From Candidatus Woesebacteria bacterium (GTDB lineage: Bacteria > Patescibacteriota > Microgenomatia > UBA8517), in contig OY970314.1 in the NCBI GenBank assembly GCA_963716475.1, forward strand, positions 787,865 through 851,864: a stretch of DNA of 64,000 nt, read 5' to 3'. This document shows, in pieces, positions 10,715 through 59,977 of the stretch (positions within the stretch are counted from its first letter, which is position 1; every line of letters starts with the position of its first letter). Under the pieces are notes generated by a model, which searched no databases, had not been told where the DNA came from, and worked only from the letters and a program-made list of their open reading frames with translations. Position numbers and translations under genes: made by a program.

Positions 10715-11775
10715 TTATTAATTTCTTCCCATTTTCCGTTACCTAGTTTGGGTATTAAAACATATTGTTTGTCATACGTTAGCGAAATGGGTGGGTTTGC
10801 AAGAAGATCTGTAGATAGAACCCTCGAATTCATATTATTTCTGGATCCGAGAGCAGCCTTTGCCAGTGCTCCGATGGCGGTTGGATCTAAATCTGTTTCG
10901 ACTGATGCTTTAACCGCCCTGAGAATTCTATAATCTTTAATCGGATTGATAACTGTACCAAAAGAAAGAACTCTTTTACTTATCGCCGAAATTATTTTTT
11001 GCTGTCTCGCCGACCTTGCAAAATCAGTATTTTCTCCGTTATCTCCTTCGCGCGACCTGGCAAATTCAAGCGCCGTCGCCCCACCCATATGGATTAAGCC
11101 CTGGTCAAAATGTATAGTTTTATAGCGGCAGGCGAACGTCAGGTCACCACCACAGGCATCATTTTCCCTGCCGGCAATTGGATACTTGGTATCCGTAAAA
11201 CTATTTTCGACAGAGACATCAATCCCTCCGATAGTATCTATAATATCCTGAAACCCGGAAAAATCGATTACCATAGCATAGTCAACCGGCTGCCCCGTAA
11301 CCTCGGATGCAACTTGCTTAGCAAAGTTTAGGCCTCCTCCACGCTCAGGCTGTAAATTACCCCAGTAGTAGGCACTATTTATCTTGGCTCTGATTTCCGG
11401 TATCCAGATATCTCTAGGAACTGAGACCAATGTTATCGAGTGGTTTATCAAAGAAATCGAAGCAAAAATCATAGTGTCTGTCAGATCTCCTCCTTCGTGT
11501 CCCTTTCCCCCTATCCCTAGAATTAATACATTTACTCTTCCGTTTTCGGATTTAACTGCCGTGGCGTTGGAAAAAAGAAAGCTTTTAACCACCTCCTGAT
11601 ACCCTGTCACACCTGCACTTTTAAAAATTGCGTTCGCTGCAACAAATGGAAGAAGCAGTACCAGAGCCACAACTAAGACGATCCCGAACCAAACCGACGA
11701 TTTATGCCGTCGAGGCAAATCATGCCGTTGGGACACCTCCTTCGGGGTGATAGAATTGATTTGTTCTTTTTCCAT
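10693..11775 (-). CDS. LCP (LytR-CpsA-Psr) family cell-wall glycopolymer ligase.
   Basis: LCP-domain motifs are present: VLILGIGGKGHEGGDLTDTMIFASI...SVPRDIWIPEIRAKINSAYYWG...VDYAMVIDFSGFQDIIDTIGGIDV. The ORF track starts it at 11877; the internal Met at 11775 gives a short cytoplasmic tail plus TM and abuts the pcrA start. Confidence 0.8.
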   Translation of the reverse strand: MEKEQINSITPKEVSQRHDLPRRHKSSVWFGIVLVVALVLLLPFVAANAIFKSAGVTGYQEVVKSFLFSNATAVKSENGRVNVLILGIGGKGHEGGDLTDTMIFASISLINHSITLVSVPRDIWIPEIRAKINSAYYWGNLQPERGGGLNFAKQVASEVTGQPVDYAMVIDFSGFQDIIDTIGGIDVSVENSFTDTKYPIAGRENDACGGDLTFACRYKTIHFDQGLIHMGGATALEFARSREGDNGENTDFARSARQQKIISAISKRVLSFGTVINPIKDYRILRAVKASVETDLDPTAIGALAKAALGSRNNMNSRVLSTDLLANPPISLTYDKQYVLIPKLGNGKWEEINKWFKNLQ

Positions 11776-11776
11776 T

Positions 11777-13624
11777 ATGTCTATTCTATCCGATCTTAAC
11801 CCCGAACAAAAGGCTGCCGTAACATATAACGGTGGGCCTCTTTTGGTTTTAGCAGGCGCCGGGTCCGGAAAAACCAAAGTATTGACCCACCGCGTGGCCT
11901 ATTTTATTGAGCAGGGCTTAATCAAATCTGAAAACGCCCTTCTTTTAACCTTCACCAATAAAGCCGCAAACGAGATGAAGGAAAGAATTTCGGGTCTTAC
12001 CAAGGGAAATACTCCAATGACCGGAACTTTCCATTCTTTCTGTGCCAAGGTGCTTAGGATCGACGGAAGACACATTGGGATCCCCGTAAATTTTATAATA
12101 TATGATGAACAGGATCAGAAGGACGCGGTAAAGCAAATTCTTGAAGGAGCGGATATATCAACCGACCAGTACAACCCGGCGTCAATCTTAAACGGCATAA
12201 GCGAAGCCAAAAATCAAATGCTGACCCCCGAGGAATATAAAGATTTCGTCCGGGGTGAATGGCAGGAGGTTGTCGCCAGGGTTTACCCTGAATATGAAAA
12301 AATGCTCAAAGAAATCGGAGCACTGGATTTTGACGACCTTTTAATTAAAACTGTCGAGCTTTTCAAAAAAGTGCCGGAGGTTTTGGAAAAATGGCAAAGA
12401 ACACTTACTCACATTTTTGTCGATGAATGGCAAGATACAAATAAAATCCAGTACACGCTGACAAAACTTTTGGTCGGCAAACGTAAAAACATTACTGCGG
12501 TCGGGGATGCTTCCCAATCTATATACTCATGGCGCGGCGCGGACTTTAGGAATATTAATTATCTGATCCGCGATTACCCTGATATAAAAGTGCTTAATTT
12601 GGAGCAAAACTACCGCTCAACCCAAAATATTCTCGACGCCGCTAACCTGGTCATTTCTAAAAACACCACTCATCCGATTTTGAAACTTTGGACTCAAAAA
12701 GCAGCCGGAGCAAAAATCAAACTTTATGCTGCCAGAAACGGTTTCGACGAAGCGGATTTTGTGGTCGATGAAATCAACTGTCTGGGAAAATATTCCGACG
12801 TCGCGGTTTTATACCGCACCAATGCTCAGTCACGGGTACTCGAAGAGGCACTTCTTCACGCCGGAATTCCCTATGTATTGGTGGGTGGAGTAAGGTTTTA
12901 CGACCGGAAAGAAATTAAGGACGTAGTTTCTTACATTAAATTTCTGGTTAACCCCAAGGATTCCGTTTCCAAAAAAAGAATCGAAAAAATCGGCCTCAGG
13001 CGCTTTGAAAAATTGAAGGAAATGGCCTCGATCGATGGAATGACAACTCTTGATATTTTGGATGCCGTCATTCAAAAAACCGATTATCTGGCTCTTTTCC
13101 AAAAAGAATCCGAGGAAAACCTGGCCCGGCTGGAAAACCTGAAAGAACTAAGGTCTGTTGCAACGGAATTTCCCAACATTAATGATTTTTTGGAAAATGT
13201 AGCCTTGGTTGAAGCTGGTCCCAGAAATAAAACCAAAAATGCGGTAACACTCATGACCCTCCACGCCGCCAAGGGCCTTGAATTCCCGATTGTTTTTATT
13301 GTCGGAATGGAAGAAGGACTCTTTCCCCATTCCCGATCCTTAATGGATACAAATCAACTGGAAGAGGAGAGACGTCTTGCTTACGTTGGAATAACTCGGG
13401 CCAAAGAAATAATTTATCTAACTTACGCAAGTTCCCGTCTTTATTTCGGGGAAAGAATAAGTAACCCCCCCAGCCGGTTCATAATGGATATCCCCGAGAA
13501 CCTCATCGAAAATCTCGGATCAAATAGTTTTTCGAAACCGGATGGTCTAAAATTGGATTCAGCTGATGATATTAAAGGAACTTTCGACGATATCATTGAA
13601 AAATACCTGGAACATGATAACTAA
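11777..13624 (+). CDS. pcrA: ATP-dependent DNA helicase of the UvrD/PcrA family.
   Basis: Seen motifs are LNPEQKAAVTYNGGPLLVLAGAGSGKTKVLTHR (Walker A), DEWQDTN and LEQNYRST. The ORF-track start 11747 is upstream; MSILSDLNPEQ at 11777 matches the usual PcrA N-terminus. Confidence 0.85.
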   Translation: MSILSDLNPEQKAAVTYNGGPLLVLAGAGSGKTKVLTHRVAYFIEQGLIKSENALLLTFTNKAANEMKERISGLTKGNTPMTGTFHSFCAKVLRIDGRHIGIPVNFIIYDEQDQKDAVKQILEGADISTDQYNPASILNGISEAKNQMLTPEEYKDFVRGEWQEVVARVYPEYEKMLKEIGALDFDDLLIKTVELFKKVPEVLEKWQRTLTHIFVDEWQDTNKIQYTLTKLLVGKRKNITAVGDASQSIYSWRGADFRNINYLIRDYPDIKVLNLEQNYRSTQNILDAANLVISKNTTHPILKLWTQKAAGAKIKLYAARNGFDEADFVVDEINCLGKYSDVAVLYRTNAQSRVLEEALLHAGIPYVLVGGVRFYDRKEIKDVVSYIKFLVNPKDSVSKKRIEKIGLRRFEKLKEMASIDGMTTLDILDAVIQKTDYLALFQKESEENLARLENLKELRSVATEFPNINDFLENVALVEAGPRNKTKNAVTLMTLHAAKGLEFPIVFIVGMEEGLFPHSRSLMDTNQLEEERRLAYVGITRAKEIIYLTYASSRLYFGERISNPPSRFIMDIPENLIENLGSNSFSKPDGLKLDSADDIKGTFDDIIEKYLEHDN

Positions 13625-14564
13625 TAATTTGGACAGGATTTCCACACACCCTCTGCAAACCTCTGCATGGGCAGAGTTTAGACGAAGGTGGGGAAACGAA
13701 GTTCTCGAGACAAAATACGGAGTTCTAACTCTACACAAACTCCCCTTCACCAATTACAAAATTGCGATGTTTGAAAAGGGGCCGATTCCGACAAAAGCAA
13801 TGCTCGAGGACCTGAGAAAAATCGGAAAAGAAAATGATTTAGTCTTCATTAAGCTGGAGCCAAATTGCATCAAATCCGATGAATTATCCAAATTGGTCCA
13901 ATCGGAAGGTGCCATTGCCGGTCATAGGCTATTTACTCCAACAACTTTCTGGATCGATTTAACCCCAAGCGAAGAGGAATTGATGAAAAGTTTCTCCGGT
14001 AAGACCCGGTATAACATCCGCCTGGCCCAAAAGAAGGGTGTCATTGTTAAAGAAGACAATTCAGATAAGGCTTTTGATAAATATTTAGAATTAACCCGCG
14101 AAACAATCACCCGTCAGGGATTTTACGCACACACTGAAAAATATCACCGCCTGATGTGGAACGCCCTCAAAAAAGCCGGAATTGCACATCTCATGACAGC
14201 CACATATCAGGGTGAAATCATAACCACCTGGATAGTTTTTGCTTGGAAAAATTTTCTTTATTACCCGTACGGTGCCTCAACCGAAAAACACAAAGAAGTT
14301 ATGGCCAATAATTTGATTATGTGGGAGGCAATAAAATTCGGTAAAAAACTGGGGCTTGCCACATTCGATCTTTGGGGGAGAGAAGAGGGCAAAGGTTTTA
14401 CAAGATTCAAGGAAGGTTATAACCCCAAAGTAATTGAATTTTTGGGAACCTGGGACCTTGTAATTAATAAGCCGCTCTATGTACTCTACAAATTGGCGGA
14501 GTGGATCCGCTGGCCGACTCTCAAAATCGCCGCCACATTTGGTCTTTCCAAACACAGATTTTAA
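13614..14564 (+). CDS. FemAB-family aminoacyl-tRNA-dependent peptidyltransferase (peptidoglycan interpeptide-bridge formation).
   Basis: FemAB pattern ...TSAWAEFRRRWG...RYNIRLAQKKGV...YQGEIITTWIVFAWKNFLYYPYGAS...NNLIMWEAIKFGKKLGLATFDLWG. The ORF-track start is 13566; the internal Met is at 13614. Confidence 0.7.
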   Translation: MITNNLDRISTHPLQTSAWAEFRRRWGNEVLETKYGVLTLHKLPFTNYKIAMFEKGPIPTKAMLEDLRKIGKENDLVFIKLEPNCIKSDELSKLVQSEGAIAGHRLFTPTTFWIDLTPSEEELMKSFSGKTRYNIRLAQKKGVIVKEDNSDKAFDKYLELTRETITRQGFYAHTEKYHRLMWNALKKAGIAHLMTATYQGEIITTWIVFAWKNFLYYPYGASTEKHKEVMANNLIMWEAIKFGKKLGLATFDLWGREEGKGFTRFKEGYNPKVIEFLGTWDLVINKPLYVLYKLAEWIRWPTLKIAATFGLSKHRF

Positions 14565-14565
14565 A

Positions 14566-15420
14566 ATGGTAGATATTCGCCAATCTATTCACTATGCCAA
14601 TTATCTTAAGCGTGAAGGATGGATTGTCGAGAGAATCGGAGAGATTAACTACTTCATCAGAAAATTTCCATTGGCGGGTTCATTACTAAAAATACAAAGG
14701 CCTGAAGAAATCAACTACGACATAATTAACAAATTATACCGAAAATACCGCGTTTTTCAGGTTGTTCTCGAACCAAAACTAGCCTCCGTCATCAGCACCA
14801 CCGATAGTCATAATCCAATACTACAACACGGGTTTAAATTGTCAAAAAATCCTTATTTACCCTCAAAAACACTCCAAATTGACCTGACTCAGACACAAAA
14901 AGATATTTTTGAGCATTTTAAGAAGGATGCCCGATACGCGGTCAAGAGGGGAGAGGCCACAAATACTAAATCCTACTCGACCCCCGATGAAATTAGAAAG
15001 TGGCGCGAGGCGTGGAAAAAATCCGTTAAATATAATCGTTATGTACCGTCTGCCGAACAATTAATTAATTTACGCAAAAGTTTTCCCAGTAGTTACTCCC
15101 TTTTCCTTGCGTCGCACAATATATCTGGCAGAATTATAGGTGGAGTGCTTTTCACGCGATCTTTACACGATTTTGCTTACTACTGGTACGGATTTACAAA
15201 TGACGAGGGTCGTACTTCCCTCTCCCAGTACTCACTCCTCTATCAAGGAATACTATGGGCTAAAAAACTGGGCTGTAAGATTTTTGATTTCGAAGGAGTT
15301 TATGATCCCCGCTTCCCCAATAAGAGCTGGCTCGGTTTTTCCCATTTCAAGAAAAGTTTCGGTGGTTATGAAGTTCTCTATCCCGGCTGCTATACTAAGT
15401 TTATATTCCCTTTTATATGA
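14566..15420 (+). CDS. Second FemAB-family peptidyltransferase, tandem paralog.
   Basis: MVDIRQSIHYANYLKREGW...ARYAVKRGE...ISGRIIGGVLFTRSLHDFAYYWYGFTN...ILWAKKLGCKIFDFEGV. ATG 14566 lies 1 nt after the upstream stop. Confidence 0.7.
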   Translation: MVDIRQSIHYANYLKREGWIVERIGEINYFIRKFPLAGSLLKIQRPEEINYDIINKLYRKYRVFQVVLEPKLASVISTTDSHNPILQHGFKLSKNPYLPSKTLQIDLTQTQKDIFEHFKKDARYAVKRGEATNTKSYSTPDEIRKWREAWKKSVKYNRYVPSAEQLINLRKSFPSSYSLFLASHNISGRIIGGVLFTRSLHDFAYYWYGFTNDEGRTSLSQYSLLYQGILWAKKLGCKIFDFEGVYDPRFPNKSWLGFSHFKKSFGGYEVLYPGCYTKFIFPFI

Positions 15421-20622: not shown

Positions 20623-22044
20623 ATGGACAAGAAATTCTATATTACTACCACACTACCGTACGTGAATGCGGAGCCTCATATTGGCTTTGCGTTGGAAATT
20701 ATCCAGGCAGATGCTGTAGCTCGTTATCACAAACTGCTTGGGGAAGAAGTTATTTTTAACTTCGGAACGGATGAGCATGGTCAAAAAATCTACAAAAAGG
20801 CTCTTGAGGTCAAAAAAGATCCCCAAGAATATTGTGATGAGTATGCGGCCAAATTCGACGCCCTCAAAAAGGCCTTAAACCTCAGTTATACAAACTTTAT
20901 AAGGACTACCGATCCCAAACACGTCGAGGCAGCCCAGGAATTCTGGAAACTTTGTGATAAAAACGGCGACATTTACAAAAAGTCATATAAAACCAAATAC
21001 TGTGTGGGCTGTGAACTGGAAAAGACTGATTCAGAGCTTGTTGATGGCAAATGCCCCCTCCACCCCACCCAAGAACTTGAAATTATTGAGGAGGAAAATT
21101 ATTTCTTCAAATTCAGTAAATATCAGAAACCTCTTTTGGAATTTTACGAGAAAAATCCGGATTTTGTGATTCCGAAAGGGAAATTTAACGAAATTAAAAC
21201 TTTCGTTAAGGAAGGATTACAAGATTTCAGTATTTCCCGCCTTAAAAGTAAGATGCCCTGGGGAATTCCTGTACCGGATGATCCCGAGCAGGTAATGTAT
21301 GTTTGGTTTGATGCCCTCATCAACTATATTTCCACTCTCGGCTGGCCGAAAGATATAAAAAATTACGAAGGTTTCTGGCCCGGAATTCAGGTTGCGGGAA
21401 AAGATAATTTGCGTCAACAAAGCGCCATATGGCAGGCGATGCTTGCTTCGGCGGGATTACCTTTTTCCAAACAGATTTTTATCCATGGATTTATAACTGT
21501 TAACGGACAAAAAATAAGTAAAAGCCTAGGGAATACCATTAACCCGATTGAAGTTGCTGAAAAATACGGAACGGATGCCCTCCGCTACTATCTTCTGGCC
21601 AAAATTAACCCCTACGACGACTCGGACTTTACTTTTGAAAAATTCGAGGAGGTCTACAATGGAGATTTGGCAAACGGGCTCGGAAATTTGGTAGCACGCA
21701 CAATGCAACTTGCGCAGACATATTTAGAAAAAGGGACCCGTCCGGAACCTACAAAATTACCCGAGGAATATACCAAGGCAATTGACAAATTCGAATTCAA
21801 TAAAGCCCTTGAAATGGTGTGGAGTCTTATCCAAAAATTAGATACAAAGATTACCGAAACTGAGCCGTTTAAATTGGTCAAGACTAACCTAGAAGCCGGT
21901 AAAAAATTAATTTTTGATTTAACACAAGAATTATATTTCATCGGACGATTGCTAAATCCTTTTCTTCCGGAAACCAATGCAATAATTAAAGATGCTGTTA
22001 TTGCAAATATTAAACCAAAGTCCCTTTTCCCCCATTTAAGTTAA
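20623..22044 (+). CDS. metG: Methionyl-tRNA synthetase, minimal form without the C-terminal tRNA-binding domain.
   Basis: TLPYVNAEPHIGFALEIIQADAVARYHKLLGEEVIFNFGTDEHGQKI, Cys-rich knuckle CVGCE...CPLH, and KMSKS-type KISKSLGN. Length 473 aa. Confidence 0.9.
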   Translation: MDKKFYITTTLPYVNAEPHIGFALEIIQADAVARYHKLLGEEVIFNFGTDEHGQKIYKKALEVKKDPQEYCDEYAAKFDALKKALNLSYTNFIRTTDPKHVEAAQEFWKLCDKNGDIYKKSYKTKYCVGCELEKTDSELVDGKCPLHPTQELEIIEEENYFFKFSKYQKPLLEFYEKNPDFVIPKGKFNEIKTFVKEGLQDFSISRLKSKMPWGIPVPDDPEQVMYVWFDALINYISTLGWPKDIKNYEGFWPGIQVAGKDNLRQQSAIWQAMLASAGLPFSKQIFIHGFITVNGQKISKSLGNTINPIEVAEKYGTDALRYYLLAKINPYDDSDFTFEKFEEVYNGDLANGLGNLVARTMQLAQTYLEKGTRPEPTKLPEEYTKAIDKFEFNKALEMVWSLIQKLDTKITETEPFKLVKTNLEAGKKLIFDLTQELYFIGRLLNPFLPETNAIIKDAVIANIKPKSLFPHLS

Positions 22045-23648: not shown

Positions 23649-24590
23649 CTAGAGGAATTTGTAGTACTCAATCGTTTTTTGAAGACCTTCTTCTAAATTT
23701 ACTTTTGGCTCCCAACACAGAACCTTTTTAGCTTTGGTAATGTCCGGTTGCCTTCTCATGGGATCATCCTTTCTGAAAGTTCCGCTGTATTTAATTTGGG
23801 ATTTGGAGTCTGTAAGCTTAATAATTTTGTCAGCCAGTTCCTTTACTTTGTATTCCTCGGGGTTCCCTAAATTAAATATCTCACCCTTGGTACCATCAGA
23901 AAACATGGCTTTTACAATTCCTTCCACCATATCATCGACATAACAAAAGGACCGGGTCTGACTTCCGTCACCGTCGATACTTACAACATCGCCCGAAAGC
24001 GATTCGTTGATAAAATTTGAAACAACTCTCCCATCATCTTTTTGCATCCGTGGCCCATAGGTATTAAAAATTCTCACTATCCGCGCGTCCAAGTTGTATT
24101 TATGAATATAAACGTAAGTTGCGGCTTCGGCAAATCTTTTGCTTTCATCGTAACAGGAACGAGGTCCAAAAGTATTTACATTTCCAAAGTATGTCTCTTT
24201 TTGTGGATGCTCCTTAGGATCTCCATAAACTTCGGATGTCGAGGCAACGAGGACCTTGGAGGCGATCTTTTTTGCCAGTTCTAATATTTTTAATATACCC
24301 GTAGAATTGGCCATAAGTGTTTCTTCCGGATAATTTTGATAATCAACAGGTGAGGCCGGCGAAGCCAGATGAAAAATACAATCTAAACCCGAAGTGTCTA
24401 GATCAAGAGGTTTTGTAATATCGGCTTCGACAAATTCAAAATTGGGGTCACCCAAAAGGTGCTTAATATTTTCCTTTGTGCCAGTAAGAAGATTGTCAAG
24501 ACAGATAACTTTATAACCATTATCAACCAAAAAGTCGCAAAGGTGGGAGCCAATGAATCCCGCCCCCCCGGTAACCAAAACGCTTTGCAT
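23649..24590 (-). CDS. uxs: UDP-glucuronate decarboxylase (UDP-xylose synthase), an NAD-dependent SDR.
   Basis: MQSVLVTGGAGFIGSHLCD...ASTSEVYGDP...CYDESKRFAE...RIFNTYGPRM is near-canonical UXS. Confidence 0.85.
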   Translation of the reverse strand: MQSVLVTGGAGFIGSHLCDFLVDNGYKVICLDNLLTGTKENIKHLLGDPNFEFVEADITKPLDLDTSGLDCIFHLASPASPVDYQNYPEETLMANSTGILKILELAKKIASKVLVASTSEVYGDPKEHPQKETYFGNVNTFGPRSCYDESKRFAEAATYVYIHKYNLDARIVRIFNTYGPRMQKDDGRVVSNFINESLSGDVVSIDGDGSQTRSFCYVDDMVEGIVKAMFSDGTKGEIFNLGNPEEYKVKELADKIIKLTDSKSQIKYSGTFRKDDPMRRQPDITKAKKVLCWEPKVNLEEGLQKTIEYYKFL

Positions 24591-26163
24591 ATGGGCAAAT
24601 TATACCATAAGCGAAGCTTGGCCATTTCTCAGAGAAATGGTAATATGGTTATATATGAAATCGGTTTGGGATAAACTTCATATCCTTTCGGAAAAACTTC
24701 GTATTCCCTCTCTCCCCAATTGGCTTGTCGGAATTCTGGCGCTTGTCTTTATTCTTAGAATCCCCTCTTTCTTCGAACCTTATTATTACGGCGACGAGAT
24801 GGTTTATCTGACTCTGGGCCAGGGGGTAAGACAAGGCCTTACGCTTTACAAAGATATCCACGACAATAAACCCCCTCTTTTGTATTTGACAGCAGCTGTA
24901 GCCGGAAATCTTTTCTGGTTTAAAATCATCTTGGCTTTTTGGAGTCTTATCACAGTTGTTGTTTTCTATAAACTCACAAAGCTCTTATTTGAAAGTAACC
25001 AAAAAGCACAAAAGATTGCGACTATTCTTTTCGGGCTTTTGACAACACTTCCACTTCTTGAGGGTCTTACTATCAATTCCGAACTCTTCATGATAGTTTT
25101 TACTATTTTGGCGTTTATTATACTGCTCAAGAAAGATGTCAAGTCGAACGGAATATTTTTGGCTGGGGTCTTTTTCGGCTTGGGAACTCTCTTCAAAATT
25201 CCCGCCGCATTTGATGCACCCGTTATCGTCTTTTATTGGTTAATTACCACGGGACTGGGCAATTGGAGAAAAATATTCAAAGACACATCCATGCTTATTG
25301 CAGGATTTACTACACCGCTTCTAATAACTTTTATTTGGTACTTTTTTAAAGGGGCTCTACCTGAGTACCTCAGAGCCGCATTTTTACAAAATGTCGGTTA
25401 TTTAAGCAGTTTCAGACCGGGAGATGTCCAAAAGTCATTTTTGGTACGGAATGCGCCACTTCTTATCCGAGGGTTTGTCGTACTTTTCGGATCATCAATT
25501 ATTTTTATATTTCGAAAAAAACTTTCGAATAAATTTGTTTTATTCTCTCTCTGGACTCTTTTTGCACTATTTGCAATTACCCTTTCGGAACGGCCATATC
25601 CGCATTATTTAATTCAGATGATTGCACCGATTTCACTTCTTTTGGCTACATTCTTTAGTGAAAAAAGCTTGGAACAATCTCTTGCTGTTATTCCCCTCGC
25701 TCTGGCATTTTTTGTACCGGTTTTTTATAAATTCTGGCTGTATCCGACGAGCAGTTATTATCTGCGTTTCATTAATTTTGCAATACATAGGCAAACGAAA
25801 GCCGAATATTTCAATGGTTTTTCCCCCACCACCAATAGAAATTATGAAATTGCTCAGTTTTTAGCTACATCAAGTGAGGTTTCCGACCGTGTATTTATGT
25901 GGGGACCGGATTCCGCCACTGTCTATGCACTCGCCAAGCGCCTCCCCCCGATTAAATACGTTGTTGATTATCACATACTGGACTATTCCTCAAAGGCACA
26001 GGAAGCCAAAAATATTGCCTCCAACCCTCCAAGGTTCATAATATTAACCAGTGACAATCCGTACCAAGAACTAAGGCCCCTAATCAGACAAAAATATATA
26101 TTGGTCAACACAATTGAAAATGCCAATATATATTCAAGGGTAAATTTTGCTCCAGAAAAGTGA
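24553..26163 (+). CDS. GT-C family glycosyltransferase (ArnT-like, GT83/39).
   Basis: A loop motif PSFFEPYYYGDEMVYLTLGQG after TM1 with DIHDNKPPLLYL, then 12+ TMs. Alternative starts at 24637 and 24655 would avoid overlap with uxs. Confidence 0.6.
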   Translation: MNPAPPVTKTLCIWANYTISEAWPFLREMVIWLYMKSVWDKLHILSEKLRIPSLPNWLVGILALVFILRIPSFFEPYYYGDEMVYLTLGQGVRQGLTLYKDIHDNKPPLLYLTAAVAGNLFWFKIILAFWSLITVVVFYKLTKLLFESNQKAQKIATILFGLLTTLPLLEGLTINSELFMIVFTILAFIILLKKDVKSNGIFLAGVFFGLGTLFKIPAAFDAPVIVFYWLITTGLGNWRKIFKDTSMLIAGFTTPLLITFIWYFFKGALPEYLRAAFLQNVGYLSSFRPGDVQKSFLVRNAPLLIRGFVVLFGSSIIFIFRKKLSNKFVLFSLWTLFALFAITLSERPYPHYLIQMIAPISLLLATFFSEKSLEQSLAVIPLALAFFVPVFYKFWLYPTSSYYLRFINFAIHRQTKAEYFNGFSPTTNRNYEIAQFLATSSEVSDRVFMWGPDSATVYALAKRLPPIKYVVDYHILDYSSKAQEAKNIASNPPRFIILTSDNPYQELRPLIRQKYILVNTIENANIYSRVNFAPEK

Positions 26164-26215: not shown

Positions 26216-26548
26216 ATGTGGAAAAAAGTGCCTTACAGGAACTACTTTCTGACGGCAATTGTAATTAATTTCGGTGTCCTTGCCACGTTAATTCTTCTTA
26301 AAAGTTTTCTGCCACCCCTCGCACCGCTTTTTTACGGACGTCCGGCAGGCGAAGCGCAACTCACAAATACGCTTGGCCTTCTTATCACTCCAGGTGTATC
26401 ACTCCTAATAACAATAATAAATTTACTTCTTTGCTCCTGGATTAAGGACACTTTTCTGGAAAAACTTTTGGCCGTTTCTACTGTTGTCGTGTCCGTGCTA
26501 ACGGCCATCACTATAATTAAGATTATTCTCTTGGTAGGCTTTTTTTAA
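26216..26548 (+). CDS. Small polytopic membrane protein, hypothetical.
   Basis: 110 aa with 3-4 hydrophobic segments, immediately upstream of the WecA-like gene. Confidence 0.3.
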   Translation: MWKKVPYRNYFLTAIVINFGVLATLILLKSFLPPLAPLFYGRPAGEAQLTNTLGLLITPGVSLLITIINLLLCSWIKDTFLEKLLAVSTVVVSVLTAITIIKIILLVGFF

Positions 26549-26556
26549 ATCCGGCT

Positions 26557-27648
26557 ATGAATAATTTACGTAATCTTTTTCTCCTCCCCTGGCTCGTAGC
26601 TGCCATTGTGGCGTTTCTTACAACCCCACTTGTAATAAAGTTCGCCGGGAAAATCGGAATAATAGATGATCCGAGACATAATAAGCATCCGAAAGTGATC
26701 CACACCTACCCTGTTCCCAGGGGCGGGGGGATCCCTATTTTTTTGGCGCTCCTGGTTAGCAGCCTTTTTTTTCTGCCGATCGATAAGCATGCTGTAGGGA
26801 TATTAATCGGGGCTGCAATTTTAGTCGTAATGGGGACGCTAGATGACAAATTAAATCTCAATCCCTACCTACGATTGGCTTTGGGTTTTGTGGCCGCTGC
26901 AGCTCCGATTGCAGCCGGAATCGGAATCTCCTTCATTTCCAACCCTCTGGGAGGAATAATTAACTTAAGTCAGCCCCAAATCAGCTTTACCCTCCTAGGG
27001 GCTACTCATACTATCTGGGTTTTTTCGGACATATTCGCACTTATTTGGATTACTTTCCTCATGAATATGGTAAATATGGGGGCCAAGGGAGTCGACGGAC
27101 AGCTTAGCGGCGTAACTGTGATTGCAGCGTTAACCATTGCTTTCCTTTCTCTGAGATTTTCTGCAGACATCACTCAATGGCCAGTAATAATCCTGGCAGC
27201 AATTACGGCAGGAGCATACTTAGGATTTTTGCCGTGGCATATATTTCCCCAAAAAATTATGCCGGGTTATGGGGGAAGCACTATGGCCGGATACCTTCTG
27301 GCAGTTCTTTCAATTCTCTCTACAACTAAAGTAGGGGCACTTATGGTGGTTCTCGGAATTCCGCTTATCGATACAGGCTACACCATCGTAAGGCGCATTG
27401 CGGGTGGCAAATCCCCCGTTTGGGGCGATAGAGGGCATCTCCACCATAGACTCCTCGACGCAGGGCTAACAAAAAGACAGGTAGCATATTTTTACTGGGG
27501 AATCACAGCAATTTTGGGATTCCTTGCTCTTAATTTGAATACTGCCACAAAGCTCTATACAATGATCGGTGTGGCCCTTGGAATTGGAGGACTTATCGTA
27601 TGGCTGACGTCACGACCGAAACTGACAGAAAAACAAAAGACTCCTTAA
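26557..27648 (+). CDS. Polyprenyl-phosphate N-acetylhexosamine-1-phosphate transferase (GT4 MraY/WecA/TagO family).
   Basis: LDDKLNLNP (DDxxD), NMVNMGAKGVDGQLSG and C-terminal GDRGHLHHRLLDAGLTKRQ match WecA/TagO motifs. Confidence 0.75.
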   Translation: MNNLRNLFLLPWLVAAIVAFLTTPLVIKFAGKIGIIDDPRHNKHPKVIHTYPVPRGGGIPIFLALLVSSLFFLPIDKHAVGILIGAAILVVMGTLDDKLNLNPYLRLALGFVAAAAPIAAGIGISFISNPLGGIINLSQPQISFTLLGATHTIWVFSDIFALIWITFLMNMVNMGAKGVDGQLSGVTVIAALTIAFLSLRFSADITQWPVIILAAITAGAYLGFLPWHIFPQKIMPGYGGSTMAGYLLAVLSILSTTKVGALMVVLGIPLIDTGYTIVRRIAGGKSPVWGDRGHLHHRLLDAGLTKRQVAYFYWGITAILGFLALNLNTATKLYTMIGVALGIGGLIVWLTSRPKLTEKQKTP

Positions 27649-28580
27649 TTATTGGCGCATTCAAGGCTATGCGGCCGGTACATTGGATAAAAAATCTTTC
27701 GCTGTTTGCCGCGGTTTTCCTTTCCGGGACCATGTTTGACAAGGGGCAATTCGAAAAAGTCGTCTGGGCTTTTATCGCTTTTTGCCTGGTAACATCGGCT
27801 ACATATTTAATTAATGACGTCTTCGATGTGAAGGCTGACAGGCTCCATCCGACTAAAAAATTCCGGCCTGTTGCCTCGGGGTCGCTCCCTATTTCCGTAG
27901 CTCTTATTGAGGCTATTATTCTCGCCCTATCTTCAATCTTTATTGCAATCCTGGGCGGACTAAACTCGCTTTTCCTTTCGGTTATTGTCGTCTACCTTAT
28001 TATGCAGTTTTTCTATAGTGCAGGGCTTAAAAATGTTGCAATTCTCGATATTATTATCATCGCCGCCGGATTCGTATTAAGAGTGTACGCGGGTGCATTT
28101 GCAATTGATGCCCATCTTTCAGCCTGGTTTTTGCTTTGCGTGATTTCCGCCGCTCTTTTTCTGGCTTCGGGCAAAAGGAGAGCAGAAATTAATATTGCCC
28201 AAAATTTTAACTACGCTACCAGAAAAAGCTTAGGAACTTACAAAAAGGAACTTCTTAATTCTTACGTCACCATGTTTGGCAACGCTTCCTGGATGAGCTG
28301 GGCTCTTTTTACATTTTTTGAAAGCCCAAAAGCCTCACTTCCTTTTTGGTTGGCTCTGGCCGAGCTTTCCCGAACTACGACTATCGATAAGCTTTTAATG
28401 TCTACAATTCCTATCACAATTTTTGGAATAATGAGATATGAGTCTTTGATTTTCGAAGGTAAAAGTGAAACACCGGAAAAACTTCTTTTGACCGATAGAT
28501 CCCTTATAATTGCAGTCGGACTTTGGCTCCTCTTTATTTACTGGGTTCTTTATAGCGGCGTTTCTGCTACTGGTATTTAA
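27600..28580 (+). CDS. UbiA-family prenyl-phosphate phosphoribosyltransferase (decaprenyl-phosphate 5-phosphoribosyltransferase / DPPR synthase-like).
   Basis: LINDVFDVKADRLHPTKKFRPVASGSL closely follows the Rv3806c-type NDxxDxxxD...HPTKRFRP signature, with 8-9 TMs. GGAGGA lies 8 nt upstream of ATG 27600; an alternative ATG at 27669 avoids the 49-nt overlap with the upstream gene. Confidence 0.65.
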   Translation: MADVTTETDRKTKDSLIIGAFKAMRPVHWIKNLSLFAAVFLSGTMFDKGQFEKVVWAFIAFCLVTSATYLINDVFDVKADRLHPTKKFRPVASGSLPISVALIEAIILALSSIFIAILGGLNSLFLSVIVVYLIMQFFYSAGLKNVAILDIIIIAAGFVLRVYAGAFAIDAHLSAWFLLCVISAALFLASGKRRAEINIAQNFNYATRKSLGTYKKELLNSYVTMFGNASWMSWALFTFFESPKASLPFWLALAELSRTTTIDKLLMSTIPITIFGIMRYESLIFEGKSETPEKLLLTDRSLIIAVGLWLLFIYWVLYSGVSATGI

Positions 28581-28582
28581 TA

Positions 28583-29458
28583 CTATTTAAGATTTGCACT
28601 CCCAGTGGCTTCCTCTACTTGAGTAATCTTTTTAACATATTGTCCTGCCACCCAACCTTCAATTCCGTTCGGTAAACCAGATGCCGGTGCCTCATACTGA
28701 ATTTTTACCCACCCCGTCGCCACGTCTTCGTCAAGAAACAGATATTGCTCCCCCGGCTTGACTTGAGCAATCTCACTGCCGGCTGTACCGGGGCCGGATC
28801 TGACCCTCAAAAATCCTGTAGGGGTAGAAAGTATTTGAACGTAAGTTTTCACCACAGGAACCGGGGTGGGTGTGGGCTGCGGTGTAAGAACCTTGGCAAG
28901 TTTTGCAAACAAGGAGAGCCGAAAGCCAACTAGTGTTTTTACTGTCATTATTCTGTCGGTATAGCCCGGCGCCCTGACTGTAATTTGATGCTGGGCGGGT
29001 GAAATATCCGAAGTTTTATACGGCGCAAAGCCTTGAGGTAAGCCGTCTACCGAAACTTGAGCATTTTCCGGTGTTGATATTACAATTAAGCCAGTTTCTG
29101 CACCCCCGATTCTGTCGAAGGAAATTACGTCTCCGGAAGATTCATCTTCAGTCCCGCCAAACTCTCTCCTTACAATGGTTTGTATGCCGGGAACAAGTGT
29201 TATTTTTGTTTCATAGGCAATCAGATTTTGCCCGGTTGAGTCAGGAACTAATTTAAGCATTATCTCCCCCGCCTTGAAAGCGCTTGTGTATGGAGTTTTG
29301 CCCACCAAATTTTCGTTAACGTAAACGTCTGAAACAGGGCTGGTATCAATAAATACGCCGCCAGGTTTCTCTCTGAAATATCCAATCAAAAAAAAGACTG
29401 CAACAATCAGGGCCGTTAGGGAGATGAGCGAAATAATTACAATTTTGGCTATCTTCAC
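28583..29458 (-). CDS. Membrane-anchored protein with two PEGA-like beta-sandwich domains and a C-terminal SH3b-like domain.
   Basis: N-terminal TM, then repeats such as VYVNENLVGKTPYTS and VSVDGLPQGFAPYKTSDISPAQHQITVRAPGY, then a C-terminus ...GFLRVRSGPGTAGSEIAQVKPGEQYLFLDEDVATGWVKIQ. Confidence 0.45.
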   Translation of the reverse strand: MKIAKIVIISLISLTALIVAVFFLIGYFREKPGGVFIDTSPVSDVYVNENLVGKTPYTSAFKAGEIMLKLVPDSTGQNLIAYETKITLVPGIQTIVRREFGGTEDESSGDVISFDRIGGAETGLIVISTPENAQVSVDGLPQGFAPYKTSDISPAQHQITVRAPGYTDRIMTVKTLVGFRLSLFAKLAKVLTPQPTPTPVPVVKTYVQILSTPTGFLRVRSGPGTAGSEIAQVKPGEQYLFLDEDVATGWVKIQYEAPASGLPNGIEGWVAGQYVKKITQVEEATGSANLK

Positions 29459-37562: not shown

Positions 37563-38627
37563 ATGCAGATAATCAAAAGTGATAAAGGGGCGGTCAAGGT
37601 TGCTATCAAGGTTTTAAAAACCGGCGGTCTGGTCGTTTATCCGACTGAAACTCTATACGGAATTGGGGCTGATGCTACAAACCGCGAGGCAGTCAAAAAA
37701 CTTACCGAATATAAAGATAGGCCTTTCGGGAAACCGTATTCCATTGCCGTGACGGATCTGAAAATGGCGGAGGAATATGTTAAATTGAATTCTACTGCCA
37801 GAAATCTTTATAGAGAATTCCTTCCCGGACCCCTAACCATTATTTCAAGCGGAAAGCACAAAGTTGCCAAGGGAGTTGAATCCGAGGACGGAACTCTCGG
37901 AATCAGAATTCCTGACTATAAATTGGCCACCAATATTGTTAAGGAATACGGCAAACCCATTACAGCAACTAGTGCAAATGCCAGTTATAAAAAACGTCCG
38001 TATAAGATATCCGACATTTTGGAAAATATCAGCGGTAAGCAAAAAGGTTTAATAGACTTGATAATTGACGCCGGTGAACTTCCCCACAATGAACCGTCTA
38101 CTGTCATTGATACAACTCTTGATAATACCGTTACGCTTCGTCAGGGGAAAATTAAATTCAGCAACAAAAATGAAGTTCTAACTAAAAGTGAGGAATCTAC
38201 CCAAAATTTGGCCAAGGAAATCTGGCAAAAATACGAAGTCCAAAAAGGCAAGCGTGCGATTGTTTTCGCTCTTCAGGGAGATATGGGTACAGGAAAAACT
38301 ATTTTTACAAAAGGCCTGGCCCGGGCAATAGGAATAACCGAAGTTGTTACCTCCCCCACTTTCGCTTTGGAGAATCAATACTTAATACCTAATACCAAAC
38401 ACTCTCTTTACCATTTTGATGCTTGGCGTCTCGAAAAATCGGACGGGCTAAGAGCTCTTGGTTTTGAGAATCTGATCAAAAATAAATCTGTAATCTCTAT
38501 TGAATGGGCCGATAGGGTTTCTGGTGCGATCCGTGAATTTGATGATGAAGCAATCATTCTTTGGGTAAAATTGGAGTTTGGAAATAAGGAAAATGAGAGG
38601 ATTATTTCTTGGGGGGTCGCGCAGTGA
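37563..38627 (+). CDS. tsaC-tsaE: Fusion of TsaC/Sua5 (YrdC domain) with TsaE (YjeE P-loop ATPase) for t6A37 tRNA modification.
   Basis: The N-terminus KVLKTGGLVVYPTETLYGIGADATNREAVKKL is the YrdC signature. The C-terminus AIVFALQGDMGTGKTIFTKGLARAIGITEVVTSPTFALENQY...HFDAWRL is the TsaE signature. Confidence 0.8.
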   Translation: MQIIKSDKGAVKVAIKVLKTGGLVVYPTETLYGIGADATNREAVKKLTEYKDRPFGKPYSIAVTDLKMAEEYVKLNSTARNLYREFLPGPLTIISSGKHKVAKGVESEDGTLGIRIPDYKLATNIVKEYGKPITATSANASYKKRPYKISDILENISGKQKGLIDLIIDAGELPHNEPSTVIDTTLDNTVTLRQGKIKFSNKNEVLTKSEESTQNLAKEIWQKYEVQKGKRAIVFALQGDMGTGKTIFTKGLARAIGITEVVTSPTFALENQYLIPNTKHSLYHFDAWRLEKSDGLRALGFENLIKNKSVISIEWADRVSGAIREFDDEAIILWVKLEFGNKENERIISWGVAQ

Positions 38628-39646
38628 AAATACTATCAATCGACACATCGTGCGATGAGACAGCCGTAGCTGTAACAGAAGATACAAAAATTCTAAGTAA
38701 CGTTATTTGGTCCCAGGCAAGCGCCCATGCTAAATTTGGCGGAGTAATGCCCTCTCTCGCCCAGCGAATGCACGAGGAACGAATCGATTGGGTTATAGAT
38801 AAAGCCTTAAAAATATTAAAAACCGAAAGATTAGATGTAATTGCAGTGACTGTCGGACCGGGGCTTTCAATCGCACTCGGCGTCGGAATCGACAGAGCCA
38901 AAAAACTGGCTACAAAGTACGACAAGAAATTAATTGCGGTAAACCATCTTGAGGGACATGTGTTGAGCTCCTTATTAAATCATGAGAATCTTATCTCGGG
39001 AATCAAGTATCCCGCCTTAGGCCTAGTCGTTTCCGGTGGAAACACAATTCTTGTAAAAATTAATAAAATTGGGTCTTACGAAACCTTGGCACAAACAACT
39101 GATGATGCACTCGGCGAAGCTTTGGATAAAGGGGCAAGGATGTTGGGGCTGGGATACCCCGGCGGGGCTATTTTAGAAGAGTTCGCACGTGGTGGAAATG
39201 TAAAAGATTATTCATTACCCATCCCAATAGCCGGTCAAGAAGAAAGGAAAATATTTACCTACTCGGGATTAAAAACCTCTTTCTCTCGATTGGTAGAATC
39301 CGAAAAACCTTTAACTAAAAAGAAAATTATTAATCTTGTGGCTTGCTTCCAAAATGTCGCTTTCACTCACCTGATCCGTATTTGTTCGCACGTAATTAGA
39401 AATTCGAAATTTAAATTTACTACTCTTCTTGTTGGAGGCGGCGTCTCAGCAAACATAGAACTTAGAAGACGTTTAAGAAAACTGGGTAAGGAAACAGGAA
39501 TTGAAGTCTTATTTCCCTCCTCCAGGAAACTTACGGGTGATAATGCTGCAATGATTGGAATAGCTGCATATTTTAAAGCCAAACGTAGAGAGTTTGTTGA
39601 AGTTGATAAAATCGATCGAAATCCAAGCGCAAAGATTACTGATTGA
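38624..39646 (+). CDS. tsaD: tRNA N6-adenosine threonylcarbamoyltransferase TsaD (Kae1/Gcp family).
   Basis: KILSIDTSCDETAVAV...VNHLEGHVLS (HxEGH metal site)...GGVSAN. A GTG start overlaps the tsaC-tsaE stop (GTGA); the ORF track begins at 38609. Confidence 0.8.
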   Translation: MKILSIDTSCDETAVAVTEDTKILSNVIWSQASAHAKFGGVMPSLAQRMHEERIDWVIDKALKILKTERLDVIAVTVGPGLSIALGVGIDRAKKLATKYDKKLIAVNHLEGHVLSSLLNHENLISGIKYPALGLVVSGGNTILVKINKIGSYETLAQTTDDALGEALDKGARMLGLGYPGGAILEEFARGGNVKDYSLPIPIAGQEERKIFTYSGLKTSFSRLVESEKPLTKKKIINLVACFQNVAFTHLIRICSHVIRNSKFKFTTLLVGGGVSANIELRRRLRKLGKETGIEVLFPSSRKLTGDNAAMIGIAAYFKAKRREFVEVDKIDRNPSAKITD

Positions 39647-39662
39647 TGTTACAATATTAGGC

Positions 39663-41726
39663 ATGGAACCCCAGTACGATCACACAAAATACGAGAGTGA
39701 TATTTATAAAAAATGGGAAGACTCCGGCGCCTTTTCTCCAAAACATGATGGTAATAACCCGTTTACTATCATTATGCCCCCTCCAAATGCCAATGATCCC
39801 CTTCACATCGGACATGCCAGATTTGTCGCCATTGAGGATATCTTAATCCGCTACCACAGAATGAAAGGGGAACCAACCCTCTGGCTTCCGGGAAGCGATC
39901 ACGCAGGAATCGAAACCCAGTTCGTTTTTGAAAAGAAACTAAGGGAAAAAGGAAAAAGCCGTTTCGATTACGACCGCGATACTTTATATAAAATGATTTG
40001 GGATTATGTTCAGGAAAATACCGGATTAATGGAATCCCAACTCAAAAAACTCGGTGCCTCCTGTGACTGGAGTAGATTTAAGTACACACTTGATCCCGAA
40101 ATTATAAAAATCGTGTATAAAACCTTTAAGAAACTTTACGACGACGGGTTGGTATATCGGGGTGAAAGAATTGTAAATTATTGTCCCCGCTGCGGTACTG
40201 CCTATTCGCAACTAGAGGTAGATTACGTCGAACGCGATGATAATTTCTACTATCTGGATTACGGTACGATCACAATCGCCACAACCCGGCCCGAAACAAT
40301 ATTTGCAGACGTTGCGGTTGCCGTTAATCCCAAGGATAAAAGATACACTAAACTAATCGGATTAAACGCAAAAATACCGCTTATTAACCGCGACGTTGCC
40401 ATAATTGATGATAATCTTGTAGATATAAGCCTAGGAACCGGGGCTCTTAAAATTACACCTGCACATGACTCTACAGATTTCGAGATCGGGCAAACCCACA
40501 AACTCCCCATCATATCCGTAATTGATGAAAAAGGTCGTATGACAGGTACTCCCGAGAAATACATCGGTCTGAAAGCGGAAATGGCAAGAGCTGAAGTCGT
40601 AAAGGACTTACAGGCTGCAGGTAAGATAAAGGAAATCGACGTCATTCACCATTCGGTAGGCACTTGCTACAAGGATCACGGCTTAATCGAACCCATGGTT
40701 TCCAAACAGTGGTATATAAAGGTAGAAAGTTTAACTAAAAAAGCTCTTGGGTCAGTAAGAAACAAGGAAGTCAAGTTTGCCGTTAAAAAGTACGAGAAGA
40801 TAGCAACTAATTGGCTAAAAAACCTTAAAGATTGGAATATAAGCCGTCAAATTGTCTGGGGAATAAGAATTCCGGCCTGGAGATGCGAGAAGTGTTTGGA
40901 ATGGACAATCACCGACGGAGATATTCCGACCGAATGTTCAAGTTGCAACAATAAAGTTTTATCGCAAGACCCGGACACGTTTGATACCTGGTTTTCCTCG
41001 GGTCAATGGCCATTCGTCACTTTACAAACGGGAAAATCCGGCGATTTTGAAAAGTTTTATCCGACAAGTGTTATGGAAACGGCCTACGATATACTACCTT
41101 TCTGGGTGATAAGAATGATTATGCTCGGGGTTTATGCAACCGGAAAAGTTCCGTTTAAAGAAGTTGTTATCCATGGGCTTGTCAGGGACCGCGAAGGACA
41201 AAAAATAAGTAAGTCCAAAGGGAATGTCATAAATCCAATTGAGATGACCGAAAAATATGGTGCTGATTCTTTACGGATGGGGCTTGTTTGGGGAGGGCTT
41301 ATTGAAAACGATATCACCCTTGATGAACAAAAGATTAACGGTCAGAGAAAATTTGCAAACAAAATTTGGAATATCGCCAGGTTTGTCACTTCAAGTCAAT
41401 CCGTTAAAAAAGCCACAAAAAATGCCGACGATGAACTTGTTCTAAGCGAATTGAAACAAACAATTAAAAATGTTTCAAAAGATTTGAACAAATTCCGTTT
41501 AAACGAAGCCGCTGAAAAAATATATGATTTTGTATGGCATAAGTTCGCCGATGTCTATATTGAAAAAACCAAGGACAGACGCAAAGAAGCCCAACCTACT
41601 CTGGAAAAAGTCCTTGTCAATTCACTTAAACTTCTCCACCCGTTTATGCCCTTTGTCACAGAACAAATCTGGCACGAAATGGGGAATAATGAGCTTCTGA
41701 TTACTTCCGAGTGGCCTAAAACTTAA
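39663..41726 (+). CDS. valS: Valyl-tRNA synthetase, short form without the C-terminal coiled-coil.
   Basis: PPPNANDPLHIGHARFVAIEDILIRYHRMKGEPTLWLPGSDHAGIETQ (HIGH), KMSKS KISKSKGN, and CPRCGT Zn knuckle. The N-terminal region is ValRS-like rather than IleRS/LeuRS-like. Start at the internal Met; the ORF track begins at 39594. Confidence 0.8.
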   Translation: MEPQYDHTKYESDIYKKWEDSGAFSPKHDGNNPFTIIMPPPNANDPLHIGHARFVAIEDILIRYHRMKGEPTLWLPGSDHAGIETQFVFEKKLREKGKSRFDYDRDTLYKMIWDYVQENTGLMESQLKKLGASCDWSRFKYTLDPEIIKIVYKTFKKLYDDGLVYRGERIVNYCPRCGTAYSQLEVDYVERDDNFYYLDYGTITIATTRPETIFADVAVAVNPKDKRYTKLIGLNAKIPLINRDVAIIDDNLVDISLGTGALKITPAHDSTDFEIGQTHKLPIISVIDEKGRMTGTPEKYIGLKAEMARAEVVKDLQAAGKIKEIDVIHHSVGTCYKDHGLIEPMVSKQWYIKVESLTKKALGSVRNKEVKFAVKKYEKIATNWLKNLKDWNISRQIVWGIRIPAWRCEKCLEWTITDGDIPTECSSCNNKVLSQDPDTFDTWFSSGQWPFVTLQTGKSGDFEKFYPTSVMETAYDILPFWVIRMIMLGVYATGKVPFKEVVIHGLVRDREGQKISKSKGNVINPIEMTEKYGADSLRMGLVWGGLIENDITLDEQKINGQRKFANKIWNIARFVTSSQSVKKATKNADDELVLSELKQTIKNVSKDLNKFRLNEAAEKIYDFVWHKFADVYIEKTKDRRKEAQPTLEKVLVNSLKLLHPFMPFVTEQIWHEMGNNELLITSEWPKT

Positions 41727-46046: not shown

Positions 46047-46192
46047 GTCATTAGTATTATCTCCGCAAAAATATTTATTTAACTGGTGCCAATTTTTGCT
46101 TCTAAAACTGTTTTCAAGTTTTACGTAAAAAATATTTTACTTCCCTTGCACGAAAACGTGAAATTTTCATACTAAATTTTCCCAAATATATA

Positions 46193-59953: not shown

Positions 59954-59977
59954 TTTATTTAACCTGATGTTGCGGGT

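Follow-up and report, generated by a model that had tools for sequence, protein, structure and literature searches.

The DNA analysed here, a 64,000-nucleotide stretch from the genome of an uncultured, ultrasmall Candidatus Woesebacteria bacterium (hereafter the window), carries on its plus strand a run of four closely spaced genes, which encode a GT-C glycosyltransferase, an orphan protein of 110 amino acids (aa), a family 4 glycosyltransferase (GT4) of the polyprenyl-phosphate N-acetylhexosamine-1-phosphate transferase (PNPT) type and a UbiA-family protein (Table 1). The last two lie exactly where they had been placed by an earlier reading of the window made without database searches (the sequence-only reading), which had proposed that this pair belongs to a polyprenyl-phospho-pentose pathway for a cell-wall glycan. 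We define the core of the cassette as five genes, namely those for a membrane glycosyltransferase of family 2 (GT2), the GT-C, the orphan with its three predicted transmembrane (TM) helices, a non-canonical PNPT and a predicted polyprenyl-phosphate 5-phosphoribosyltransferase (PPPRS, or DPPRS where the lipid is decaprenyl phosphate), with a convergent PEGA/SH3 gene alongside. This five-gene cassette is conserved across the Microgenomatia loci that we recovered. A scan for promoters and terminators returned nothing informative.

The window is a low-GC stretch (GC ~0.34-0.49), and its proteins are closest to those of Candidatus Woesebacteria and Microgenomates, within the Patescibacteria or Candidate Phyla Radiation (CPR). 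The best genome match of the UbiA gene was Woesebacteria GW2011_GWA1_44_23 (88% identity), and all 80 genome loci returned for this gene were from Woesebacteria, Microgenomates or Patescibacteria metagenome-assembled genomes (MAGs). Many MAG records with the Woesebacteria-type cassette (L011, L012, L015, L017 and others) are titled "uncultured Gammaproteobacteria bacterium", and one "Alphaproteobacteria"; their gene content and synteny are those of Patescibacteria, and the record titles are unreliable.

Table 1 Features of the cassette, followed by those of a second gene cluster, in window coordinates.
Feature	Position	Strand	Basis
Membrane GT2, processive-synthase type, 496 aa	22053-23543	+	PF13632; DAD, EDW and QQIQRW motifs
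UDP-glucuronate decarboxylase (UDP-xylose synthase, UXS)	23649-24590	-	335 bits to human UXS1
GT-C, PMT_2 (ArnT/PMT-like) clan	24553-26163	+	PMT_2 borderline; orthologue matches
Orphan 110-aa protein, 3 predicted TM helices	26216-26548	+	No Pfam/NCBIfam match
GT4/PNPT phosphoglycosyl transferase, non-canonical, 363 aa	26557-27648	+	PF00953 Glycos_transf_4, E=3e-21
Shine-Dalgarno-like GGAGG inside the GT4 coding sequence	27586-27590	+	Read from sequence
GT4/UbiA gene overlap, 49 nt	27600-27648	+	ORF coordinates
UbiA-family protein, very probably a PPPRS/DPPRS, 326 aa	27600-28580	+	PF01040 UbiA, E=1.8e-20; probable Rv3806c orthologue
Membrane-anchored PEGA + SH3 protein, convergent with the UbiA gene	28583-29458	-	PEGA E=2.2e-16, SH3_3 E=3.2e-10
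PMT-type GT-C, 814 aa	4083-6527	-	
393-aa open reading frame, no assigned family	6451-7632	+	
PMT_2 GT-C, 533 aa	7587-9188	+	
Weak PMT_2 match, 514 aa	9170-10714	-	
LytR-CpsA-Psr (LCP) gene, only one in the window	10693-11877	-	
UvrD-type helicase gene, between the LCP and FemAB-like genes	11747-13624	+	
Two FemAB-like genes	13566-15420	+	

Identity of the UbiA-family protein

The UbiA-family protein scored 248 bits on the NCBIfam equivalog model for decaprenyl-phosphate phosphoribosyltransferase (NF008978), well over its cut-off of 207, whereas the models of other UbiA subfamilies stayed below 50 bits (33.8 for heme O synthase, cyoE, and 20.6 for ubiA) and MenA gave no match. It aligned end to end with the structure of Rv3806c from Mycobacterium tuberculosis (8j8j; residues 14-309, E=1.2e-44), with identity at 107 of 277 aligned positions (39%), and the NDxxDxxxD...HPTK(K/R)FRP signature pointed out earlier, which fits the family pattern of NDxxDxxxD plus an HPxK(K/R)xRP cytoplasmic loop, is present as NDVFDVKADRLHPTKKFRP. 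The ligands of phosphoribosyl pyrophosphate (PRPP), Mg2+ and decaprenyl phosphate in Rv3806c have been defined from its cryo-EM structure (PMC10994848), and 12 of these 13 substrate-binding residues are identical in the window protein (R22, K28, Y70, N73, D77, K87, R90, Q135, Y138, K143, K191 and K208). The single differing ligand is Y157, here a phenylalanine, a residue that has been noted at this position in some mycobacteria (PMC10994848).

In a neighbour-joining tree the protein falls inside the Rv3806c-like clade, apart from UbiA, MenA and heme O synthase, and BLASTP gave 157 bits to Rv3806c versus 22.7, 24.3 and 16.5 bits to E. coli UbiA, MenA and CyoE, respectively; by both approaches it groups with Rv3806c and not with the menaquinone or heme O enzymes. 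The passed model and the conserved ligands agree with the DPPR synthase assignment of the sequence-only reading, and the protein is very probably a polyprenyl-phosphate 5-phosphoribosyltransferase and an orthologue of Rv3806c. It could instead be taken for an aromatic or heme prenyltransferase of the UbiA, MenA or CyoE type, given that many of its homologues are labelled "4-hydroxybenzoate polyprenyltransferase" by the Joint Genome Institute (JGI) and that its Pfam family (PF01040) is common to those enzymes. This reading is effectively refuted by the difference in model and BLASTP scores, by the position inside the DPPRS clade and by the complete set of phosphoribose ligands, residues that UbiA enzymes do not conserve.

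The PPPRS family comprises 1,541 clusters at 50% identity (E<=1e-30), and six of 150 family representatives are longer than 340 aa, with extensions that were uninformative by eye and were not put through a domain scan. The NCBI name "decaprenyl-phosphate phosphoribosyltransferase" is already carried by homologues from Microgenomates, "Patescibacteria group", Acetivibrio and Sphaerobacter.

The overlapping GT4 gene and the conservation of the pair

An overlap of the GT4 and UbiA genes had been suspected, and it amounts to 49 nucleotides (nt). The GGAGG lies 9 nt 5' of the UbiA ATG, and we regard the overlapping start as real because the alignment to Rv3806c already sets in at residue 14, ahead of the next methionine (M24). 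An overlap of this kind makes translational coupling possible.

The pairing was followed through a close set of 80 Woesebacteria-type genome loci, 79 of them with upstream DNA, and through a distant set of 80 metagenome loci obtained from a scan seeded with distant family representatives, in 60 of which the GT4 open reading frame (ORF) was recovered. In the distant loci the UbiA proteins are 35-50% identical to the window protein and the GroEL proteins 62-76% identical. The GT4 gene lies directly 5' of UbiA in all 79 close loci with upstream DNA and adjoins it in 57 of the 60 distant loci with a recovered GT4 ORF, and when both sets are taken together, even the latest possible UbiA start falls within the GT4 ORF at 118 of 136 loci. 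The GT-C gene and the small ORF precede the pair in the close loci wherever the upstream DNA suffices, the GT-C is part of the same gene row in most loci, and the GT2 gene is upstream of the pair in most close and distant relatives. The link between synthase and GT-C is strengthened by some distant loci (L088, L091-L094) in which a PMT-type GT-C lies directly 3' of UbiA.

We also looked at six contexts in the wider family, one each in Acetivibrio and Sphaerobacter and four in further genomes, and since the PPPRS homologue has a PF00953 neighbour in none of them, the GT4-PPPRS pairing looks lineage-specific. The partners in the wider family differ: at one locus (L171) the PPPRS adjoins a MurJ/MatE-like flippase and an LPG_synthase_TM protein, and at another (L170) its homologue adjoins a protein resembling Sulfatase/lipoteichoic acid (LTA) synthase. 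Other lineages thus appear to pair the PPPRS with different partners.

The GT4 protein has a ~10-TM architecture and matches PF00953 with 76.5 bits, but its 98 bits on the WecA model (TIGR02380) fall short of the cut-off of 326.05, and the mraY model gave 35 bits. After alignment with E. coli WecA and MraY, the residues in each column were tallied for 140 sequences, those of the window protein and of 139 relatives. These keep the equivalents of WecA D90, D91, N150, D159 (glutamate in 8 of the 140), R265, H279 and H281, that is, the DD and NxxN motifs, the second aspartate of DGxDG, the arginine and HxHH; HLHH together with the R265 equivalent, the WecA-type carbohydrate-recognition motif, is found in every sequence. 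Two conserved aspartates, however, are replaced throughout: the position of WecA D156 holds K, S, G, N or A (Lys177 in the window protein) and that of D217 holds Y, F or W (tyrosine in the window protein), and every PNPT beside a PPPRS in the loci recovered carries both substitutions. The WecA/TagO-type label given to the protein earlier therefore fits its Pfam family, its HLHH motif and its arginine, but not the WecA cut-off or these two aspartates. Identities of 77-92% among the 120 best-scoring homologues listed indicate that the protein is under strong constraint.

WecA D217 corresponds to D267 of E. coli MraY and D252 of DPAGT1, and the role of this aspartate is taken from work on the latter two enzymes. 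In MraY it lies at the Mg2+ site and is considered a catalytic residue (PMC5039524). In DPAGT1 it is a ligand of the catalytic Mg2+, and the D252A variant keeps 7% activity while D252N is five-fold more active than the wild type (PMC6218659), so that losing the carboxylate is not necessarily fatal to activity. Because an Mg2+-ligand aspartate is lost and a lysine gained, the GT4 protein is probably a phosphoglycosyl transferase that is active but works by an altered mechanism, and not a standard WecA or TagO. It may be altered in its metal or phosphate handling, with the lysine perhaps substituting for the metal. A constrained PNPT without the Mg2+-ligand aspartate is relevant to how enzymes of the MraY/WecA/DPAGT1 superfamily, a class of antibiotic targets, work.

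Further cassette members, the sugar donor and the proposed route

The GT-C of the window scored just below the PMT_2 cut-off (24.5 versus 26.1 bits), and PMT_2 was matched by 12 of its 31 orthologues (best E=9.2e-14). D81 and E82 (in a YGDE motif after TM1), D104, P108, E170 and G171 are invariant across these orthologues. It had been described as ArnT-like, of which the membership in the PMT_2 clan stands, whereas a specific likeness to ArnT is unsupported: when its profile was compared with E. coli ArnT by hhalign, the probability was a non-significant 4%, though the DE motif was aligned. No sequence match in the PDB was found for the GT-C or the GT2. Since the longest possible ORF would run into the start of the divergent UXS gene, the true GT-C start is probably M35 (24655), as judged from orthologue lengths. 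GT-C enzymes are the class that uses polyprenyl-phosphate-sugar donors, and this one is the predicted outer-face user of a polyprenyl-P-pentofuranose. In a 76%-identical relative (L001, L002, L004; ~2073-3185) a GT87-family (PF09594) GT-C is inserted just upstream of the methionyl-tRNA synthetase (MetRS) gene, at a site where the window has small ORFs only; this insertion adds to the evidence that GT-Cs dependent on polyprenyl-P-sugars are gained and lost around the locus.

The GT2 is of the processive type that had been proposed, by its match to Glyco_trans_2_3 (E=5.6e-10) and its motifs. At the position of the orphan, an ORF of 100-160 aa with the loop motif LPPxxPLFYxxPxGExQL is present in 125 of 128 loci. 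The 110-aa protein itself matched no Pfam or NCBIfam model even at E<=5, and its identification as a GtrA, SMR or ArnE-type flippase was rejected, as there was neither a family match nor similarity to ArnE; we regard it as a candidate flippase or adaptor component. The PEGA/SH3 gene, whose stop codon is 2 nt from that of UbiA, is as constant as GT4, being beside UbiA in 10 of 11 surveyed loci and in most of the close and distant loci, and its product is a possible envelope partner or acceptor.

Which pentose the lipid would carry can be approached from systems already described. Kelly et al. (PNAS 2024, PMC11127046) demonstrated by biochemical work a widespread three-component system of PPPRS, flippase and GT-C that adds ribofuranose outside the cytoplasm, with an extra epimerase leading to xylo- or arabinofuranose; in Citrobacter youngae O1/O2 the components are ORF15 (PPPRS-PRP), ORF14 (MATE), ORF12 (GT136) and, optionally, the epimerase ORF13 (PMC11127046). 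The Pseudomonas aeruginosa Pa5196/PA7 pilin D-arabinofuranose system (PPPRS, DprE1/E2 homologues and the GT-C TfpW) is an older non-actinobacterial example. The arabinose route needs DprE1/DprE2, and xylofuranose needs an ORF13-type epimerase acting on the lipid-linked sugar.

Our search for such enzymes covered the window ORFs of at least 150 aa as well as shorter ones, up to 10 kb in the 76%-identical relative, and 11 neighbourhoods (129 ORFs). DprE1-like (FAD_binding_4), DprE2-like (adh_short) and ORF13-type proteins were found neither in the window nor in the relative's 10 kb, and none was recurrent in the 11 neighbourhoods. The only short-chain dehydrogenase/reductase (SDR) met in the window was the UXS, a clear UDP-glucuronate decarboxylase (E=6e-99 to human UXS1, 4gll/2b69, with the next enzyme class at 147 bits). 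Its identity as a UDP-xylose synthase, proposed earlier, is real, but it is an accessory, divergent gene outside the constant part of the cassette, since it adjoins the pair in about half of the close relatives and was not detected beside it in the distant ones. We rejected it as an ORF13-like lipid-sugar 3-epimerase on the basis of this inconstancy and of its scores (335 bits as a decarboxylase against 147 for epimerases).

The arabinose and xylose that the sequence-only reading had included in its product thus lost their footing, the former for want of DprE1/DprE2 homologues in the window and the neighbourhoods surveyed, and the latter because the inconstant UXS makes UDP-xylose, a nucleotide sugar. 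As no epimerase is encoded nearby, ribofuranose is the most economical prediction for the donor and more likely than arabinose. A decaprenyl-P-arabinose route, in which DprE1/DprE2-type enzymes encoded elsewhere would yield polyprenyl-P-arabinofuranose and an arabinan-like polymer, would be in keeping with a synthase orthologous to Rv3806c and with the four GT-C paralogues of the window, that of the cassette included. We consider it distinctly unlikely, given the lack of FAD_binding_4 and classical short SDR proteins within the search just described, the clear decarboxylase identity of the sole SDR, and the habit of known non-actinobacterial arabinofuranose systems to keep their epimerases in the same cluster (PMC11127046).

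We favour, with moderate confidence, the interpretation that the cassette is a module for polyprenyl-P-ribofuranose-dependent extracytoplasmic glycosylation that would decorate the cell envelope. Judging from its orthology and conserved ligands, the PPPRS would transfer 5-phosphoribose from PRPP to polyprenyl phosphate at the cytoplasmic face, whereupon a putative phosphatase would strip the 5-phosphate to give polyprenyl-P-ribofuranose, and with no epimerase nearby the donor would stay in this form. The lipid would then be flipped outward, for which the conserved 3-TM orphan is the sole local flippase candidate, and the PMT_2-type GT-C would, going by its enzyme class, hand the pentofuranose to an acceptor on the outer side of the membrane. 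This acceptor would probably be a glycan for which the co-translated non-canonical PNPT makes the primer on polyprenyl phosphate, and which the QxxRW GT2 perhaps extends.

Several observations weigh against this interpretation. The GT-C is a borderline PMT_2 match whose donor cannot be read from its sequence, and with two conserved aspartates absent from the PNPT the activity of the latter is uncertain. Neither a 5'-phosphatase (HAD-PRP or PAP2) nor a flippase of the MATE (MatE), SMR, GtrA or EamA families was found in the window or in the 11 neighbourhoods, a single PAP2 match in one orphan homologue being at chance level (E=0.088). Finally, MetRS, GroEL and RmuC are syntenic across the same loci, and because these housekeeping genes are equally syntenic, gene adjacency alone is weak evidence of shared function.

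This last point leads to the possibility that the two genes are neighbours only through inherited order and co-expression, in which case the PNPT would prime an unrelated polymer (for instance a teichoic-acid-like or linkage-unit glycan) and the PPPRS would serve a separate glycosylation, for instance that of pili or S-layer proteins via PMT-type GT-Cs. The six wider-family contexts in which a PPPRS homologue has no PF00953 neighbour point the same way, as does the fact that PMT_2 enzymes are classically protein O-glycosyltransferases. However, the coding overlap is kept down to 35-50% UbiA identity, which implies selection for coupled expression, beyond plain synteny, and we think it rather unlikely that the two enzymes serve separate ends.

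The lack of a nearby phosphatase in the 11 neighbourhoods raises another alternative, in which the PNPT either acts with the PPPRS on the same lipid, adding a sugar-1-phosphate onto the 5-phosphate of polyprenyl-P-ribose-5-P, or is a non-catalytic partner of a trimeric PPPRS. The conserved gene overlap is consistent with this, and so are the two aspartate replacements, which extend to all 140 sequences and to every PNPT beside a PPPRS. Such an arrangement has no precedent, the WecA-type HxHH and arginine motifs for UDP-HexNAc are retained, and DPAGT1 D252N, more active than the wild type, indicates that carboxylate loss need not change the reaction (PMC6218659); overall we hold it to be very unlikely. 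Only a slim chance is given to the conjecture that the PNPT and the PPPRS form a two-enzyme unit on one lipid, with the PNPT, its metal-binding aspartate exchanged for an aromatic residue and a second aspartate for lysine, either using the 5-phosphate of polyprenyl-P-ribose-5-phosphate as its acceptor or processing this intermediate in some other way in place of the missing phosphatase. If this were true, the unit would make a lipid-linked ribose-phosphate-sugar primer without known counterpart, which would be the base of a Microgenomatia-wide envelope polymer handled by the 3-TM orphan, the GT-C and the GT2. Ribofuranose-dependent glycosylation outside the cytoplasm remains the interpretation that we prefer.

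Elsewhere in the window, a second envelope-related cluster occupies 4083-15420 (Table 1). The sequence-only reading had placed LCP ligases around the pair, a link that rests on the single LCP gene of this cluster, which lies 14.3 kb from the pair, behind helicase, FemAB, RmuC and MetRS genes and outside the conserved neighbourhood; in none of the 80 relatives did an LCP gene occur closer than 10 kb to the pair. On the minus strand at 43413-47985, a 457-aa membrane protein of the Wzy_C type (O-antigen ligase/polymerase-like) adjoins an 877-aa DUF4012 protein, and the two are a candidate for a further envelope-glycan pair, unlinked to the cassette. Directly after dnaA/dnaN (50156-52910), a block of higher GC on the minus strand (53915-63611; GC 0.46-0.48) encodes a 2012-aa protein with a C-terminal Peptidase_M23 domain. 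The block also contains a PrgI-like protein (62517-63611) and a pair of neighbouring ORFs (59978-61802) that gave P-loop matches of the TraG/VirB4 kind, and it is similar to the type IV secretion/conjugation genes of monoderm type that have been described in Patescibacteria. The window also holds a Sua5/TsaC-TsaE fusion protein (354 aa) followed by TsaD (37563-39646), and both its MetRS (473 aa, 20623-22044) and an ORF resembling valyl-tRNA synthetase (710 aa, 39594-41726) are shorter than is typical of their bacterial counterparts.

Comparison with known systems

The pathway had been presented as one outside Actinobacteria that was not known to be characterised in this kind of organism. The lack of characterisation holds for this phylum, where homologues are nevertheless annotated, but the concept is already established (PMC11127046); the value of the cassette therefore lies in the lineage-specific variant. 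What looks new here is the overlapping pairing of a PPPRS with a non-canonical PNPT, together with an orphan membrane protein, in a CPR lineage. In the literature searched we found no paper linking Patescibacteria to DPPRS, UbiA or arabinofuranose, and no published work on the composition of the CPR/Patescibacteria cell envelope. These bacteria make up a very large, mostly uncultured share of bacterial diversity and live attached to or dependent on other cells. By predicting a PRPP-derived ribofuranose decoration, the cassette would offer a concrete, testable handle on their envelope.

With the Rv3806c pathway of M. tuberculosis, whose further members are the Rv3807c phosphatase, DprE1/DprE2 and the Aft/Emb GT-Cs, the cassette shares a probable orthologous synthase and the predicted logic of a lipid-linked pentofuranose donor consumed by GT-Cs outside the membrane. 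It differs in having no adjacent PAP2 phosphatase of the Rv3807c type and no DprE1/E2 found, in its PMT_2-type GT-C, which has no Pfam match to the arabinosyltransferase (Emb/Aft) families, in the PNPT that partners the synthase, and in its host, a Patescibacterium of ~1 Mb. The WecA gene is unlinked to the DPPRS gene in mycobacteria.

The P. aeruginosa pilin system likewise has a non-actinobacterial PPPRS homologue feeding a GT-C, and since that GT-C glycosylates a protein it is a possible model for the PMT_2-type GT-Cs. Its epimerase genes are clustered, whereas none is found beside the cassette, and no pilin gene adjoins the latter. The E. coli undecaprenyl-P-L-Ara4N system of ArnC, ArnT and ArnE-ArnF is similar in combining a lipid-sugar synthase, a small-TM flippase and a GT-C of the ArnT (PMT_2) clan; the cassette synthase, in contrast, is predicted to be a PRPP-dependent UbiA enzyme and not a GT2, and the orphan has no similarity to ArnE. 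As for the PNPT, it has the Pfam family, the ~10-TM architecture and most of the motifs of WecA, Bacillus subtilis TagO, MraY and DPAGT1, but is set apart from them by the residues at the D156 position (lysine in the window protein) and the D217 position (tyrosine, phenylalanine or tryptophan) in every member examined.

In the case of C. youngae, the likeness consists in a PPPRS of the same family beside a GT-C, a donor that would be used outside the cytoplasm, and ribofuranose as the default where there is no epimerase. The cassette synthase, at 326 aa and with a UbiA domain alone, lacks the fused HAD phosphatase domain of its C. youngae counterpart, a MATE gene is absent, and the UXS is a UDP-sugar enzyme unlike ORF13; to the C. 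youngae arrangement the cassette adds a non-canonical PNPT and a 3-TM orphan.

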